From positions 2,236,226 to 2,300,225 of the forward strand of contig OZ242182.1 of assembly GCA_965205835.1 (NCBI GenBank): a stretch of 64,000 nt of DNA, written 5' to 3'. The position numbers were made by a program, and so were the translations under genes. Positions 20,400 to 32,777 of this stretch are shown here, piece after piece. This DNA comes from Nitrospinales bacterium (GTDB lineage: Bacteria; Nitrospinota; Nitrospinia; Nitrospinales; VA-1). Each line of letters opens with the position of its first letter. Position 1 is the first letter of the stretch. The notes below the pieces were generated by a model. It worked only from the letters and a program-made list of their open reading frames with translations. It made no database searches and was not told the DNA's origin.

Positions 20400-20475
20400 G
20401 CTGGCGTAGCTCAGTTGGTAGAGCAGCTGATTTGTAATCAGCAGGTCGGGGGTTCGAGTCCCTTTGCCAGCTCCA
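20400..20475 (+). tRNA. thrU: tRNA-Thr(TGT)
   Basis: Cloverleaf with anticodon arm ctgat-ttgtaat-cag, TTCGA loop and encoded CCA. Confidence 0.97.
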
Positions 20476-20576
20476 GTTTTAATTGACTGGTTTAAAAAGG
20501 ATTCCGGTGCCCCGCAATGGGGGTTTGGGCTGGGCGATGACTGACTGTGGGGTTGCGATGGTTCACCCATAATAGC

Positions 20577-20658
20577 GGGGAGGTTCCCGAGTGGCCAAAG
20601 GGAACAGACTGTAAATCTGTCGGCTCAGCCTTCGGAGGTTCGAATCCTCCCCTCCCCA
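20577..20658 (+). tRNA. tyrU: tRNA-Tyr(GTA), CCA not encoded
   Basis: Acceptor ggggagg/cctcccc, anticodon arm acaga-ctgtaaa-tctgt and a long variable arm. Confidence 0.96.
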
Positions 20659-20682
20659 TCCTGAATTTGGTTGGATGAACTT

Positions 20683-20759
20683 GCGGGAATAGCTCAGTTG
20701 GCTAGAGCGTCAGCCTTCCAAGCTGAGGGTCGCCGGTTCGAGTCCGGTTTCCCGCTCCA
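20683..20759 (+). tRNA. glyT: tRNA-Gly(TCC)
   Basis: Acceptor gcgggaa/ttcccgc, anticodon loop cttccaa and encoded CCA. Confidence 0.97.
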
Positions 20760-20790
20760 CCTTTGGCCGGGTATTGAGTCGGTATTTAAC

Positions 20791-20865
20791 GCCCACGTAG
20801 CTCAGTGGTGGAGCACTTCCTTGGTAAGGAAGAGGTCATCGGTTCAATCCCGATCGTGGGCTCCA
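20791..20865 (+). tRNA. thrT: tRNA-Thr(GGT)
   Basis: Acceptor gcccacg/cgtgggc, anticodon arm cttcc-ttggtaa-ggaag and encoded CCA. Confidence 0.96.
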
Positions 20866-20962
20866 GGTTTTCATTGGGCGGTTCTTGGGTTTGATAGGGA
20901 TTTTAACGTCTTGCAACCGTTAGGGGGTGAGGCTGTCGGGTGCAAAGGTTGAGTAAAAAATT

Positions 20963-21112
20963 ATGAGAGTTATCGTTCATTTGGCATGTTCTGGTTGTAA
21001 TCGGAAGAATTATTCGGGGACTAAAAACAAGAAGACCACCACGCAGAGGTTGGAATTCAAGAAATATTGTAGATTTTGCAGAAAACACACCCCCCATAAG
21101 GAAACCAAATAA
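20963..21112 (+). CDS. rpmG: 50S ribosomal protein L33, Zn-binding type (not in the ORF track)
   Basis: Manual translation: [49 protein letters not shown]. Confidence 0.96.
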
Positions 21113-21216
21113 AGAAAAACTAGATGGTTGGGAGTGAGAGCGAATGTCTGGGTGATCAGGCAGGCGGAAGTATTCCTCCCCTTTCTACTTCTACGAACTG
21201 GCGCGGATTCCGAATT

Positions 21217-21289
21217 AGGTCAGTAGCTCTAACGGTAGAGCATCGGATTCCAAATCCGAGGGTTGGGGGTTCGAATCCCTCCTGGCCTG
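21217..21289 (+). tRNA. trpT: tRNA-Trp(CCA), CCA end not encoded
   Basis: Acceptor aggtcag/ctggcct, anticodon arm tcgga-ttccaaa-tccga; standard position before secE. Confidence 0.96.
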
Positions 21290-24363: not shown

Positions 24364-27300
24364 ATGTCGAAGAACCGTTCCCAGAGAGCACTAGGCAATT
24401 TTAGAAAAAGAAAAAACTTCGCCCGGATTCCTACGGTCATAAATATTCCCGATCTGATCGAGATCCAGAAAAAATCATTCGAATATTTCCTGCAATGGGA
24501 CGTCACTCCCAGCGAACGTGTGTTGAGGGGATTGGAAGAGGTCTTTAGCGATGTCTTTCCGATTTCTGACCTGAATATCAATGCTCGTATTGAGTATGCC
24601 GGCTTTGAGGTTGGTATCTGGGAGTGCGGTTGCGGCGAGTTCAAGGAACTCGGCGGCCCGGCTGTGGTGTGTTCCACCTGTAAGCAGGAAGTCACCTACA
24701 AGGAGAAGCATAAGCTTAGCGAGTGCAGGCAGAAAGGCCTCACCTATTCTGATCCGATAAAAATACTGGTCCGCCTGGTTCTTTTTGATCGGGAAGCGGT
24801 GGATGTCAACGCCCGTAACTTAAAGCACTTGCGGGATAAAATTATTGTTGAAGAGGTCAAGCGTCCACAAACCACGAAAACTCTAATTTCCGCAAAAACG
24901 CCGGTCACCGATGATATTCTGAAGCTTTTGACGACCGAAAAGGTTTCCCAGGTCACCGTCAACTCTGTCAGGGAAGTCAAAGAGCAGAAAATATTCCTCG
25001 GTGAAATGCCGATGATGGGTCCGACCGGAACGTTTACGATAAACGGAGTCGAGCGGGTCATTGTCAGCCAGATGCACCGTTCCCCCGGGGCATTTTTCTC
25101 ACACGATAAAGGCAAATCCCACGCCAGCGGCAAGATTCTTTTCTCGGCAAGGATCATTCCTGACCGGGGTTCATGGGTGGACTTCGAGTTTGACATTAAA
25201 GACATTCTGCATGTCAAAATTGACCGCCGTCGCAAATTGCCCGCGACTATCCTGCTTCAAGCCTTCGGCATGGACAATAAGACCATTCTGAAAACCTATT
25301 ATGCGATTGAGAAAGTTAGTATCAGTGGTAAGGGTTCTCGATGTTTCATGAGTAGCAAGAACCTGATGATTGGGTTCAAGGTTAAAGAGGATGTGATCGA
25401 CTCTAAAACCGATGATGTTTTGCTCAAGTCAGGTAAGAAGGTTACGGCAGCCGTCGCTAGAAAGCTGGGCAAAATGTCCCGGTCGGTGAAGGTTGAGATT
25501 GATCCTGAAAGCCTGATTGGCCAGTACCTGTATGATGAAATCATTGACCCCGAGACTGGCGAGATAGAGGTTGAGTCAAATCAGGAAATCACCGAAGGCG
25601 TTTTTAAAATTATAAAAAAGAATAAGCTCAGCGGGATTCAAATTCTTCGTATCGATGAAGAATCCTCCGACACTGTGATTCGCGATACCATGGTTGCGGC
25701 CAAGACCCAGACCCAGGATGATGCTATTCGTGAAGTTTACAAGAGGTTGCGTCCGGGAGATCCCCCAACACCTGAAATCGCAAGGTCATTGTTCGACAAT
25801 CTGTTCTTCAACCCCAAGCGATATAATTTATCTGTTGTTGGCAGGACCAAGATGAACCAGAAGTTTGGGTTGGACGTTTCTCTGGAAAACCGGTTGTTGA
25901 CCTTGGAAGATTTGGTTGCTGTGGTGAGATACATTGCCGATCTTAGAAATGACATCGGTGTTATCGACGATATCGACCATCTCGGTAATCGCAGGGTTCG
26001 CGCTGTGGGAGAATCGCTGGAAAATCAGTTCCGTGTGGGGATGGTGCGAATGGAGCGGGCTATCATTGAGCGCATGTCTATCCAGGACCTGGATGTTTCC
26101 ATGCCGCATGACCTGATTAACTCTAAACCTGTGACCGCCGCGATTAAAGAGTTTTTTGGTAGCAGTCAGTTGTCCCAATTTATGGACCAGACCAATCCCT
26201 TGTCCGAGGTGACACACAAGAGACGGTTGAGTGCTTTGGGGCCAGGTGGTTTAACCCGGGAGCGGGCGGGATTCGAGGTGCGGGATGTGCATCCAACGCA
26301 TTATGGACGTATATGTCCCATCGAAACTCCGGAAGGCCCGAATATTGGGCTGATCGCTTCCTTAAGCACATATGCCAGGGTGAATGATTATGGTTTTATT
26401 GAAACGCCTTATCGCAAGGTGGAAAATTCGGTTGCGAAAGACGATGTGGATTTCCACAATGCCTTGATTGAGGATAAATTTATTATCGCTCAAGCTAACG
26501 TTGATTTGGATGAAAAAATGAAATTCGTCCAGCCTATCGTGTCGGCCAGAAAGGGCGGTGATTTCATTTTATCTCCCAGCGAAAAAATAGATTATATGGA
26601 TGTGTCGCCGAAGCAGTTAATCAGTGTGGCTGCGTCTCTAGTTCCTTTTCTTGAAAACGATGATGCTAACCGGGCTCTGATGGGTTCAAACATGCAGAGG
26701 CAGGCGGTGCCCCTTTTACGGGCTGAGGCACCTCTGGTGGGAACCGGTATGGAAGCGATTGTGGCTCATGATTCCGGAGCGGTGGTGGTCGCTGAAAATA
26801 ATGGCACCGTCATCAGTGCCGATGCGACTCGCATTGTTGTGTGCGCCGAAAAGAAGCCCGAAGGTAGGATCAAGACAAAGCGCAGCCAACTGGCTTCGAA
26901 TGTGGATATTTACATGCTGAGCAAATATCAGCGGTCGAACCAGAACACCTGCATCAACCAGCGCCCTCGAGTGTCTTCGGGAGACAAGATCAAGCGTGGT
27001 GATGTGCTCGCGGATGGACCTTCCACCGATCATGGCGAGCTGGCTTTGGGTAGAAATATCCTGGTGGCGTTCATGCCTTGGGGTGGGTACAACTTTGAAG
27101 ATGCCATCATCGTCAGTGAAAAACTGGTTAAAGAAGATGTGTACACCTCCATTCATATTGAAGAGTTTGAGGTGGAGGCCCGTGATACCAGGCAGGGTAA
27201 AGAGGAAATCACCCGCGATATTTCCAATGTAGGAGAAGACGCCCTGAAAAATTTGGACGAAAGCGGAATCATCCGCATTGGTGCCAGTGTAAAGCCTAAT

Positions 27301-28581
27301 GACATTATGGTTGGTAAAATCACGCCCAAGGGTGAGACCCAACTGAGTCCGGAAGAAAAACTTCTCAAAGCGATCTTTGGCGAAAAGGCCGGAGATGTGC
27401 GCGATACTTCTCTCAGGGTTCCTCCCGGAATCCATGGAACGGTGATCGACGTCAAGGTCTTTTCCCGTAAGGGGATCGATAAAGACTCGCGAACCCTTGC
27501 TATAGAAGAGGAAGAAATAGCGCGCATTGAAAAGGACTATGGTGATGAGATAAAAATAGTGAAAAGTGAAACCGAGAAAAGCATGCGTTCCCTTCTCGCG
27601 GGCCAGGCGGCGACAAAGTCCACAACGGTAGGGCGTGTCACATTTAAGAAGGGTCAGGAAATTGATGAAGCGTTGATTGCTAGAATGAGCATTAAGGACC
27701 TCGCTAAAGTCCCGGCCAAAGGGGTTGATGGCAAAGTGCTTCTGGAAATGGAGAGTACTTCCAAGGACCAAGTCCAGATTCTGAAGTCCATGCAGGAGGA
27801 AAAGGTTTCACGTCTGAAAAAAGGCGATGACCTGGCCCCGGGTGTGATCAAGCTGGTAAAAGTATTTATGGCCATGAAACGCAAATTGCAGGTGGGCGAT
27901 AAAATGGCAGGACGCCACGGTAATAAGGGCGTGGTTTCGACCATTGTTCCGGAGGAGGATATGCCCTATATGGAAAGTGGTCAGCCGATAGAGTTGATCC
28001 TCAATCCTTTGGGCGTGCCTTCGCGAATGAATGTCGGCCAGATTCTGGAAACCAATTTGGGTATGGCTGCCAAGGCCGTAGGTGAGCACATGGCTACACC
28101 GGTGTTCGATGGTGCCCGTGAAGAAGAAGTCAGGCAACTGCTGATCGAGGGCAGATGTTCTGAATCGGGAGAGATTTCGCTTTTTGATGGCAGAACCGGA
28201 AATTATTTCCGCCAAAAAGTGATGGTGGGTTATTTGTATATGCTCAAACTGCATCATCTTGTCGATGATAAAATCCATGCGCGGTCTACCGGTCCGTATT
28301 CCCTGGTGACTCAGCAACCTCTTGGAGGTAAGGCTCAGTTTGGCGGGCAGAGGCTTGGGGAGATGGAAGTCTGGGCGCTGGAAGCTTATGGTGCTGCTTA
28401 CACTCTGCAGGAAATGCTCACGGTAAAATCTGATGATGTTGAAGGCCGCAAGCGCATGTATGAAGCAATTGTCAAAGGAGACACCCATTTGAATCCCAGC
28501 CTGCCTGAATCGTTCAACGTTCTGGTTAAAGAGTTGCAGAGCTTGGCCATTGATGTTGAGTTGATCGAGTCGGAAAAGTAG
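24364..28581 (+). CDS. rpoB: RNA polymerase beta subunit, with N-terminal lineage-specific inserts
   Basis: [56 protein letters not shown] and [16 protein letters not shown]. Confidence 0.99.
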
Positions 28582-28688
28582 AGGCCCCTCACATAGTTTT
28601 TAAAGCCGCCGGATGTTGATTCTCCGATGGTGTGGATCATGTAGAGAAATTTATAGCGGTTTGCGAAAACCTTAAAAAGGAGAAGTCC

Positions 28689-31600
28689 GTGGTGGATAGC
28701 CTGACATATTTTGATAAGCCAAAAAACCCCATTATGTTTGATGCCCTTCGCGTGCGGATTGCGTCCCCGGAAAAAATCCGCTCATGGTCTTATGGGGAGG
28801 TTAAGAAACCTGAAACGATTAATTACCGGACTTTCAAGCCTGAAAGAGACGGGTTGTTCTGTGCTAAGATTTTTGGGCCCGTCAAAGACTGGGAGTGCAC
28901 CTGCGGCAAATATAAAAGGATGAAGCATAAGGGTGTCATCTGTGAGAAGTGTGGCGTTGAAGTCATTCTCTCGAAGGTGCGCCGGGAACGTCTGGGGCAT
29001 ATTGAACTGGCCAGCCCAGTTGCCCACATCTGGTATTTCAAGGGTCTGCCTAGTCGTCTCGGGCATTTGCTGGATATTCCCCTGAAAGATCTTGAGCGCA
29101 TTATTTATTTTGAAAATTATGTGGTGACCAACCCCGGTGACTCGGAGATGGAAGTTGGCCAGATTTTGGACGAAGAAACGTATCGGGAAATGGAGATGGA
29201 GTTCCCCGACACGTTCCGAGCCATGATCGGCGCTGAAGGGGTTGCGGAACTTCTCAAGCCGATGAATCTGGATACCCTTTCAGTGGACTTGAAGGAGGAG
29301 ATGGTCACCACCAAGTCGGTGATGAACCGAAGAAAAGTCGCCAAGCGGTTGAAGATTGTTGAGGCGTTTCGTAAGTCAGGCAACAAGCCGGAATGGATGA
29401 TCCTTCAAGTTGTCCCCGTGATTCCGCCTGAATTGCGCCCCTTGGTTCCTCTGGATGGCGGGCGGTTTGCCACCTCTGACCTGAACGATCTTTACCGACG
29501 TGTGATCAACCGGAATAACCGGTTGAAACGCTTGCAGGAGTTGAAGGCACCGCAGATCATCATCCGAAATGAAAAGAGAATGTTACAGGAAGCCGTTTCG
29601 GCTCTGTTTGACAACGGGCGTAGGGGCCGCACCTTGCGCGGAACCAACAAGCGTCCCTTGAAATCTTTGAGCGATATGCTCAAGGGTAAGCAGGGTCGGT
29701 TCCGGCAAAATCTGCTGGGTAAGCGAGTGGATTATTCCGGTCGGTCCGTTATCGTTGTTGGGCCGCATTTAAGATTCCACCAGTGTGGACTGCCAAAGAA
29801 AATGGCACTCGAGTTGTTCAAACCGTTCGTGTTCAACCGGCTGGAAGAAAAAGGTTATGCGGCAACGATCAAGACCGCAAAAAAAATGGTCGAACAGGAA
29901 CGCGCTGAGGTCTGGGAAGTATTGGAAGAGGTGGTGAAAGGCCATCCCATTCTGCTCAACAGGGCACCAACACTGCATCGATTAGGTATTCAGGCGTTTG
30001 AACCTTTGCTGATTGAAGGCAAGGCCATTCAGGTGCATCCGATGGTATGTACTGCTTTCAATGCCGACTTTGATGGCGATCAGATGGCGGTCCATGTCCC
30101 GCTTTCCATGGAAGCGAGAACCGAATGTAAGTTGCTGATGATGTCTTCCAACAATGTGTTGTCTCCTTCAAACGGAAAACCCATTGCTGTTCCCACCCAG
30201 GATATAGTTTTGGGTTGCTATTACATGACCAAGATTCGCGGTAATGTGAAGGGGGCAGGTAAGGTTTTCTCGGGCCAGAAAGAAGTAGTGGCGGCTTACA
30301 ATGCGGATGAACTCGATTTGCAGGCTCAAATTATCGTTCGCCTTGAAGGGGTGTTGACCCAGACCACAACGGGACGGGTGCTTCTCGGTGGAGTGTTTCC
30401 AGAAGGGTTGCCGTTCGAACTGGCAAACCGACAGATGGATAAAAAATCCTTGTCTGATCTTTTCTCCATGTCTTTCCTTGTGGTGGGGCGGGAAAAAACC
30501 GTATCCCTGCTGGATGAAGTCAAGGAGCTGGGATTCAAATACGCCACCGAGGCGGGTCTCAGTATTTCCATTGACCAGATGCGCATTCCCAAAACCAAAA
30601 CTCAGTTGGTGGATAAAACCAGCGATGAGGTTCTCAGGGTTCATAAGCAATACCGCGATGGGCTCATCACCAATGGTGAAAGGTATAACAAGGTTATTGA
30701 TATCTGGGCGCACGTCACGGAAAAAGTATCTGAAGAAATGTTTAAAGAGCTGGAAACAGAAGACGAGGCCACCGTTATTGGGAAAAACAACAAGGACTTT
30801 AACTCGATTTTCATCATGGCGGACTCGGGAGCCCGGGGAAGCGCGCAACAGTTGCGGCAGTTGGCTGGAATGCGTGGCTTGATGGCCAAACCCTCGGGAG
30901 AAATCATCGAAACGCCGATCACCGCAAACTTCCGCGAAGGTCTTTCGGTCATTCAGTATTTCATTTCTACGAATGGAGCCCGCAAGGGCTTGGCGGATAC
31001 CGCGCTTAAAACGGCAAACTCGGGTTACCTCACCCGCCGACTGGTGGATGTAGCGCAGGATATGATTGTTCAGGAAGAAGACTGCGGAACTTTGAAGGGC
31101 ATTGATGCGATATCCCTGGTGGAAGCCGGTGAAATCATCCAGCCTTTGGGAGAAAGAATTTTAGGGCGGACGGTTCTTGAAGACGTGGTCGATCCTTTTA
31201 CCGGGGATGTGCTGGCCAAGGCAGACAGTCTGATTGTCGAGGAAACCGTGCTGGATATTGAAAATGCCGGTATCGAAAAAATTAAAATGCGATCCTGCCT
31301 GACCTGTGAATCCAAGCAGGGGGTTTGTATCAAATGTTACGGGCGCAATATGGCTACCCTGCAATGGGTGGAAGTGGGTGAGCCGGTAGGTGTTATTGCG
31401 GCGCAGTCTATTGGTGAGCCGGGAACCCAGCTTACCATGCGAACTTTCCATATTGGCGGAACGGCCAGCCGGGTGGTTGAGCAAACCACTTTGAATACCA
31501 AGCGGGGAGGAATCGTCAAGTATATGGGTCTTCGCACTCTCAAAAACCGTAACGCAGAAACCATTGTTATTAACCGCAACGGAAGTCTTGTGATTCAGGA

Positions 31601-32777
31601 TGAAACCGGCCGCGAAAAAGAGAAGTTCCCGGTTGTGTACGGAGCTAAGCTTAAAGTTGGCGACGGACAGGAGGTGCAGGAGGGTCAGACTTTGGTCGAA
31701 TGGGATCCTTATACCAACGCTATCTTGACAGAAGTTTCTGGAACCATTGCTTTCGGCGATATTATCGAAGGCGTGACTATGAAAGAAGACTTTGATGAGA
31801 TTACCGGTCTCTCCACCAAAGTTATCATCAGTCATCGTGATGAGAAAAAACAACCGCAGATTTCACTTGAGGATGAGAAGGGTGACACGGTGCGTCGCTA
31901 TGTCCTGCCTGCTGGCGCCAACATCAACGTCAGCGAAGGTGATATGGTGAGTGCTGGAGACTTGATCGTAAAGATTCCCCGCGAATCGGCGAAAACCAAA
32001 GACATCACCGGCGGATTGCCGCGTGTGGCCGAGCTTTTTGAGGCTCGCAAACCGCATGAGCCGGCGACGATTACTGAAATTTCAGGTACGGTGAAGTTTG
32101 GTGGATTCGTTAAGGGCATGCGTAAGGTCATCATTGTGAGTAAATCCGGCGATGAATACGAATACCTGATTCCGCGTGGCAAACATATCAACGTCCATGA
32201 AGGCGATGAGGTGGTTACCGGCGAACCTCTGATGGACGGTGCCTCCAACCCGCATGATATTTTACGGGTATTGGGAGAAGATGAATTGCAGAAATACCTG
32301 GTGAATGAAGTGCAAGAGGTTTACCGTCTCCAGGGCGTGCAGATCAATGATAAGCATATCGAGGTTATCGTGCGGCAAATGCTCAGGCATTTGGTCATTG
32401 AAGATGCAGGCGATACGGGATTTCTGGTTGGAGAACAGGTGACGAAGAAAGTCTTTAACCTGGCCAATCAGGAAGCCATCAAGAATAAGAAAAAACCAGC
32501 TAAAGGTGCTGCGGTACTCTTGGGAATTACTAAATCGTCGCTCAGCACGGAAAGTTTTATTTCGGCAGCATCTTTCCAGGAAACCACTCGTGTCCTCACA
32601 GAGGTGAGCGTGAGCGGCAAGCGAGATAACTTGGTCGGGTTAAAAGAAAATGTGACTATGGGAAGGTTGATCCCGGCAGGTACGGGATGCCGAGCATATA
32701 GCGGAATTCGCATTGAAGAACCTGAAATTGAAGGGGCTGAACAGACGGAAGACCAAGCTCTGGTTACGGCGGAATAA
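28689..32777 (+). CDS. rpoC: RNA polymerase beta' subunit
   Basis: [28 protein letters not shown] and [15 protein letters not shown] start at 28689 or 28692 follows AAGGAG. Confidence 0.99.

Follow-up and report, generated by a model that had tools for sequence, protein, structure and literature searches.

The window analysed here is a 64,000-nucleotide stretch of a Nitrospinales bacterium genome (contig OZ242182.1, positions 2,236,226 to 2,300,225). It contains the rplKAJL-rpoBC genes in their usual arrangement, with rpoB and rpoC adjacent. The rpoB gene (window positions 24364-28581, + strand) is an open reading frame (ORF) for the 1405-residue β subunit of RNA polymerase (RNAP), in which Pfam recognises Rpb2 domains 1, 2, 3, 45, 6 and 7. 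The 1381-residue β′ subunit is encoded by rpoC (28632-32777, + strand; ORF and translation). Our subject is a 28-residue insertion in the β1 lobe of RpoB that resembles the zinc-binding domain (ZBD) of β′.

The insertion comprises RpoB residues 85-112 (24616-24699, + strand). It lies between a β-strand (residues 74-83) and the ECRQKGLTY helix, and carries four cysteine residues that are putative zinc ligands. The first knuckle, Cys88-x-Cys90 (24625-24633, + strand), is conserved in 36/45 relatives with an insert of this short form. The second, Cys103-x-x-Cys106 (24670-24681, + strand), follows with the x12 spacing of the β′ ZBD. The canonical ZBD is at RpoC residues 87-111 (28890-28964, + strand). 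A preliminary description of this DNA, made without database searches, had noted that the 25-residue core of the insert (RpoB residues 86-110, within window positions 24619-24696) shares C-x-C-x12-C-x2-C with the ZBD, and that the two coding sequences start alike (tgggagtgc...tgcggc). Translation confirmed the shared spacing, with 11 of the 25 residues identical in an ungapped alignment, and the DNA likeness was reproduced.

Model RpoBs had been said to have only a short loop at this position, and they do. RpoB residues 85-117 are opposite 5-6 residues (E. coli/Vibrio 77-81) in the solved β chains of Xanthomonas, Vibrio and E. coli. Insert-free relatives (sequence around the site: ...YSLGEPKYDVEEC...) have the two residues 'EP' (...LGEPKYDVEEC...) where this RpoB has 28. 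The location of the insert, at residues 85-112 of 1405, is N-terminal, unlike that of the C-terminal Cys4 ribbon of Rpb2 and archaeal subunit B, which belongs to the clamp region.

We modelled RpoB residues 1-620 with AlphaFold2 (AF2) using 132 aligned sequences. The mean score in the predicted local distance difference test (pLDDT) was 77. A Foldseek search with the 620-residue model re-identified bacterial β chains only, with expect values (E) down to 3e-48. Over residues 71-140 the pLDDT was 87-91. In the model, the strand at 74-83 is followed by short strands at 85-88, 91-92, 102, 109 and 111-113, and by the conserved helix at 118-124. The insert segment is thereby predicted to form a small β ribbon, modelled with confidence by AF2; the short strands around both knuckles are confident features of this predicted model only. 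By topology, the ribbon leaves the β1 lobe after strand 2.

Relatedness of the insert to the β′ zinc-binding domain

A profile was built from 13 Nitrospinota-type inserts (34 columns) and compared with 177,635 distinct PDB sequences. The best 60 matches were all ZBDs of β′ or cyanobacterial γ subunits (E 9e-7 to 3e-4), with no Rpb2 chain among them. They aligned, ungapped, onto E. coli β′ 69-94 through the motif W-E-C-x-C-G-x-Y-K...V-C-x-x-C-G-x-E-V. The profile was also used in a six-frame search of the window and 120 fetched loci (1.46 million residues). Here, β′ ZBDs came next after the insert's own family, at 25-33 bits (E 5e-8 to 1e-5). The ZBD encoded by rpoC in the window scored 30.1 bits (E 3.9e-7). 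Other zinc ribbons in this DNA, for example that of ribosomal protein L33, reached 3 bits at most.

Alignment of insert and ZBD with hhalign gave a probability of 97.9% (score 51.5). The control, an alignment of the insert with the unrelated L33 ribbon, gave 0.6% (score 10). We also used shuffling. With the four cysteines fixed and the other 21 residues permuted, seven or more identities occurred with P = 0.002. For the same-pair shuffle of insert and ZBD, again with the cysteines fixed, a BLOSUM62 score of 37 or more had P = 1.5e-5. As judged by these sequence comparisons, the likeness of the insert to the ZBD is beyond chance and their paralogy is well supported. The preliminary description had proposed this relationship and had named a lack of profile similarity to the β′ ZBD as what would speak against it. 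Similarity was found by the PDB profile search, the six-frame search, hhalign and permutation.

The resemblance goes further than the spacing of the cysteines (Cys70/72/85/88 in E. coli β′). The strings W-E-C-x-C-G-x-[YF]-K and C-x-x-C-x-x-E-V are also common to insert and ZBD, and the ribbon predicted for the insert is similar to that of the ZBD. A C-x-C first knuckle is unusual among zinc ribbons. When the 34-residue ribbon was modelled in isolation, the pLDDT was 80. Most of the top 50 Foldseek matches to this model were β′ chains, superimposed with a root-mean-square deviation of 2.2-2.8 Å over 25-26 columns; none was significant.

Pfam scans of the insert, alone and with its flanks, returned weak sub-threshold matches to Znf_SCAND3 and TerY_C only, and no Rpb1_1. 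Pfam is uninformative at this length, because the genuine ZBD taken alone barely matches Rpb1_1 (E 0.099). The most economical donor of the insert would be rpoC.

Distribution and age of the insert

Relatives labelled Nitrospina, Nitrospinaceae, Nitrospinae and Nitrospinota, with RpoB identities as low as 53%, share the 28-residue insert. When 1.84 billion representatives were searched exhaustively with the profile, 217 proteins were recovered at a cut-off of E <= 0.001. In many of these, a longer stretch rich in cysteine comes after the N-terminal part of the insert. Cluster look-ups assigned the longer Cys-rich forms to Acidobacteriota and one variant to Hydrogenivirga, a genus of Aquificota. 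Seven proteins (P0044, P0069, P0073, P0086, P0117, P0170 and P0186) were discarded as unrelated long repeat proteins that accumulate many weak stretches. We also rejected P0098 as an example of β′ with two ZBDs; this 365-residue fragment contains an exact 122-residue repeat that includes the ZBD and is probably an assembly artefact.

One genome per species was scanned with a degenerate DNA pattern encoding [FY]-x-[IVL]-G-x-W-x-C-x-C-G-x11-C-x-x-C. The pattern has one match in the window, with zero expected by chance. The scan found at least 120 loci, and all matches listed are RpoB at this site. More than 110 of the 120 listed loci are from Acidobacteriota, representing all classes. The others listed include a Nitrospinaceae chromosome, a Nitrospinota metagenome-assembled genome (MAG) and an Aquificota MAG. 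The preliminary description had mentioned that Acidobacteria have, at this position, an insert that begins WEC.CG and is longer and rich in cysteine; this was borne out. Five MAGs labelled Clostridia, Eubacteriales or Eisenbacteria (L012, L013, L035, L039 and L063) have RpoB inserts typical of the Acidobacteriota or Aminicenantes type; mis-binning or mislabelling is the probable reason.

Among the other best RpoB matches sampled, the insert was not found in Myxococcota, Desulfobacterota/Geobacter, Binatia or Nitrospirae. The aligned solved β chains of proteobacteria (Xanthomonas, Vibrio, E. coli and Caulobacter) also have no insert. The insertion is lineage-specific, in that it occurs in Nitrospinota, some Aquificota and Acidobacteriota and is absent elsewhere among the lineages sampled. 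The short form is found across Nitrospinota and in some Aquificota, and the longer form, with eight cysteines, throughout Acidobacteriota. The Aquificota examples (P0065 and P0194 from Hydrogenivirga; L114 from an Aquificota MAG) show two versions. In one (WECGNCRSELPNDVVGGVGVKCPNCGG), the first knuckle is C-x-x-C and the loop is longer; the other (WRCNCGEFRGLGGPNVVCERCGQKV) is like the Nitrospinota insert.

The Acidobacteriota insert is ~61 residues long (WECKCG.L.GLHHLR..C..CG...C..CG...C..CGDPV.L.LKY). Its insertion point, its WEC.CG start and the x12 spacing of its first ribbon are those of the Nitrospinota insert, and hhalign aligns the two with a probability of 96.7% (score 39.1). It differs in having ~33 more residues, with a second pair of CxxC knuckles, and in being net basic (mean +2.7) and rich in His and Arg. 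Behind its last CxxC knuckle it has a tail (CGDPV.L.LKYDV.EC) that matches the one in the short form. Hence, as far as its sequence goes, the long form looks like the short form with ~33 internal residues, including the two extra knuckles, added. Examples of the long form among the 120 loci are L003 (3520, minus strand) and L067 (Bryocella elongata). The Acidobacteriota insert is less ZBD-like than its Nitrospinota counterpart. Conversely, the Nitrospinota insert is closer to the ZBD than to the Acidobacteriota insert (30 versus 14-19 bits; hhalign scores 51.5 versus 39.1).

The preliminary description had attributed the insert to an intra-operon duplication that gave this polymerase an extra domain. 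The notion of a recent event private to this lineage did not survive. At the DNA level, 39 of 75 bases are identical between insert and ZBD, and 37.6 +/- 2.2 are expected from the two peptides and codon usage (P = 0.35). Thus, the DNA likeness adds nothing to the protein likeness, and recent duplication as deduced from DNA similarity was rejected. We also rejected concerted evolution with the ZBD of the same genome, since the insert matches its own genome's ZBD at 11/25 positions and the ZBDs of other genomes at 11.1/25. Judged by these comparisons, the insert is old and spread over several phyla, with no sign of recency.

Constraint, charge and possible function of the ribbon

The 45 short-form sequences differ in their cysteines. 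All four are kept in 36/45, and three or four are lost in the remaining 9/45, which fall into three groups. In the group WET[VS][DE]GEF... (n = 2), P0222, labelled Nitrospinaceae, has lost four cysteines and P0006 three of four. The group WESE[ED]GEY...GENTHRP has six Cys-poor sequences and WEGGGEEY one. All nine Cys-poor inserts are of full length, or within one residue of it, and keep W-E, G-[ED]-[YF] and L-G-G.G-V. A further Cys-free variant, P0061 (WESNGEEV...), is outside the nine; the relatives listed with three or four cysteines lost are P0222, P0006, P0235-P0239, P0242, P0254, P0247 and P0061. The preliminary description had held that a lack of Cys conservation in relatives would tell against a zinc ribbon. 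This applies in part, to the nine sequences, and the other 36 are intact.

Mean pairwise identity among bearers is 0.56 for the insert; it is higher in core segments (0.67-0.79) and lower in a variable region (0.42). The insert appears to be under constraint, with a metal site that is dispensable in some lineages, because its identity falls between those of core and variable regions and because Cys-poor forms exist. C+/C- zinc-ribbon pairs occur in ribosomal proteins. The insert resembles these pairs in that four cysteines are lost together, with length and fold-determining residues kept. It differs in that its variants are orthologues in different lineages, whereas the ribosomal C+ and C- forms are paralogues within one genome.

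Insert and ZBD differ in charge. The ZBD has a basic loop between its knuckles, G-K-Y-K-R-x-K-H-[KR]-G, which is used for DNA and Q-factor contacts. The loop of the insert is acidic or neutral, and across Nitrospinota the basic loop is replaced by E-[FY]-x-E-L-G-G-P-G. In this RpoB, the loop has a charge of -1, compared with +5 in the ZBD, and the ribbon as a whole -2 compared with +3. The Cys-free variants (WESEEGEY...) are more acidic still. In E. coli, the ZBD residues in and around the basic loop (β′ 75, 78-79 and 82-86) dock factors such as Q-lambda (10.1101/2022.03.25.485794).

The ribbon is hosted by the β1 lobe, which corresponds in bacteria to the protrusion of Rpb2 in Pol II and has a core four-stranded sheet backed by helices (PMC3001067; PMC4593161). 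The lobe supplies one wall of the tunnel through which the template strand is guided, and is located at the upstream part of the transcription bubble (PMC4593229). The RNAP-interacting domains of Mfd and CarD dock on edge strand 4 of β1 (Thermus I108-K109-E110, E. coli I117-K118-E119; PMC3001067; PMC4593161).

On the sequence data, we think it more likely that the ribbon is a knob with a structural or protein-docking role than that it is a second ZBD binding nucleic acid. The insert is probably an old, phylum-level insertion in the β1 lobe whose 25-residue core is a paralogue of the ZBD. The surface loop after β1 strand 2 would have received, long ago, part of rpoC or of an older ZBD copy, and selection would have maintained this graft since. 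In this genome, the four putative ligands would bind one zinc ion and so rigidify the ribbon. The ribbon would then serve as a surface knob, for structure or for protein docking, rather than as a copy of the ZBD surface for nucleic acids and Q factors, because the basic loop has turned acidic or neutral and Cys-free forms of the same length persist. Because the lobe with this knob also bears the CarD/Mfd strand and lines the template-strand tunnel, the knob would most likely affect how stable the β1 lobe is, or how a lineage-specific partner binds in initiation or repair coupling.

Several observations weigh against this interpretation. The YKEKHK tail that flanks the ribbon is basic, so some nucleic-acid contact is possible. 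The PDB profile search of 177,635 sequences returned no β chain, and no solved structure with the insert was found. Foldseek gave E >= 1 for the isolated ribbon, as expected for 34 residues. Twenty-five residues are too few for a tree showing the direction of transfer. We infer the position of the ribbon relative to DNA, σ and the CarD/Mfd strand from topology and the literature. Finally, the Acidobacteriota form is only weakly ZBD-like by sequence search (E 0.0085 at best). A single origin of all insert forms is plausible (hhalign 96-97%), and falls short of proof.

The origin of the insert could be explained in other ways. A generic zinc ribbon from an unrelated donor might have been inserted, with fold constraints shared by all such ribbons producing the likeness to the ZBD. 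Zinc ribbons are indeed short and recurrent, Pfam offered Znf_SCAND3 and TerY_C in place of Rpb1_1, the isolated ribbon had no significant Foldseek match, and the Acidobacteriota profile finds β′ mixed with other zinc fingers (E 0.01-2). Convergence is quite unlikely all the same. The rare C-x-C knuckle and the exact x12 spacing are common to insert and ZBD, the best 60 PDB matches are all ZBDs despite the many ribbons in that database, the L33 control reached 0.6%, and the Pfam miss carries no information when a real ZBD has E 0.099 on Rpb1_1. A recent duplication within the operon, private to this lineage, is highly improbable. The two genes are adjacent, and the first nine and the next six bases of the two motifs are identical, but the DNA identity is as expected from peptides and codon usage, foreign ZBDs are as similar to the insert as the genome's own, and the insert is also present in other phyla and in relatives whose RpoB identity is as low as 53%.

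Alternatives for the role of the ribbon start from the same data. The preliminary description had suggested an extra surface able to bind nucleic acid. As a second functional ZBD, the ribbon would bind upstream fork DNA, the non-template strand or nascent RNA, as the β′ ZBD contacts spacer DNA and ligands of the RNA exit channel. Its homology to the ZBD, the place of the β1 lobe at the upstream bubble, where it lines the template-strand tunnel (PMC4593161; PMC4593229), the basic YKEKHK tail behind the ribbon and the net basic Acidobacteriota ribbon (mean +2.7) are consistent with this. Conversely, here and across Nitrospinota the basic loop has given way to E-[FY]-x-E-L-G-G-P-G, the ribbon is at -2 and not +3, Cys-free variants are even more acidic, and the Q-lambda docking residues fall in exactly the diverged loop. 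The suggestion of an extra surface is thus weakened by the loop charge, and a second functional ZBD seems unlikely to us. The ribbon might instead be a neutral decoration, tolerated in a surface loop of which most bacteria have a short version, since three groups of relatives have lost zinc ligands and kept the insert. This is distinctly improbable: length is invariant at 28 residues, W-E..G-[ED]-[YF]..L-G-G.G-V is kept in Cys-free forms and across 53-85% RpoB identity, and conservation (0.56) exceeds that of the variable region (0.42). The more specific proposal that three phyla carry their own paralogue of the β′ ZBD on the opposite pincer, the β1 lobe, where it docks a lineage-specific initiation or repair factor, and that the repeated loss of four cysteines is an adaptation to zinc scarcity, is speculative, and we give it a small chance. 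If true, such a duplication of a core RNAP domain between the two large subunits would be without precedent.

Comparison with known β inserts and surroundings of the ribbon

Lineage-specific inserts in RNAP tune initiation, pausing and factor binding. To our knowledge, the inserts described to date consist of repeats of a small number of folds (BBM2/BEAN and SBHM). The insert studied here is like the known β inserts βi4/SI1, βi9/SI2 and βi11, which have BBM2/BEAN and SBHM folds, in being phylum-restricted, on the surface and between conserved β segments. It is unlike them in being a small Cys4 ribbon, at another site, and probably paralogous to a core domain of the other large subunit. Its 28 residues include four cysteines, contain no Pfam domain and are closest to ZBDs; neither a BEAN/BBM2 nor an SBHM fold was found in it. 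A 2024 survey of BEAN and HABAS modules describes five lineage-specific β sites, all of BEAN type, none in this N-terminal segment, and does not mention zinc (PMC11515920). In the Lane and Darst numbering used by Opalka et al. (2010), βi4 starts from E. coli residue 225, so inserts i1-i3 are upstream. One of these may be the present site. In the literature searched in full text, which did not extend to the key insert surveys, neither a zinc ribbon in β nor a likeness of such a ribbon to the ZBD was described. The insert itself may already have been catalogued; its ZBD ancestry probably has not.

As a copy of a functional core domain from the other large subunit, the insert would be a record of domain exchange inside the enzyme. 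Its bearers are environmentally dominant, as marine nitrite oxidisers (Nitrospinota) and as soil Acidobacteriota. We know of no structural study of the transcription machinery of either phylum. If zinc is bound, the short form would bring one more zinc than in the E. coli core, and the 8-Cys form two more. In the Cys-free variants, nature provides an experiment on the importance of the metal. The practical value is modest pending demonstration of a function.

The β1 lobe has a second, larger insertion of 53 residues (RpoB residues 146-198; 24799-24957, + strand). It occupies the loop between β1 strands 3 and 4, where solved β chains have 2-3 residues, and directly precedes VKEQK, the equivalent of the Mfd/CarD docking residues I117-K118-E119 of E. 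coli. The AF2 model has a long hairpin arm here (129-147 and 196-216) with a small helix-strand tip. Placed by topology in the model, the ribbon would be at one end of the β1 sheet and the second insert at the other. Among the short-form relatives compared, the second insertion is restricted to those at the level of Nitrospinaceae and was never seen without the zinc-ribbon insert.

The rpoC ORF as listed has a GTG start and includes ~25 residues before the conserved N-terminus (window positions 28632-28720). The true rpoC start codon may be downstream of 28632. Five tRNA genes (20400-21289) are located upstream of the nusG-rplKAJL-rpoBC block, which is an ordinary arrangement.

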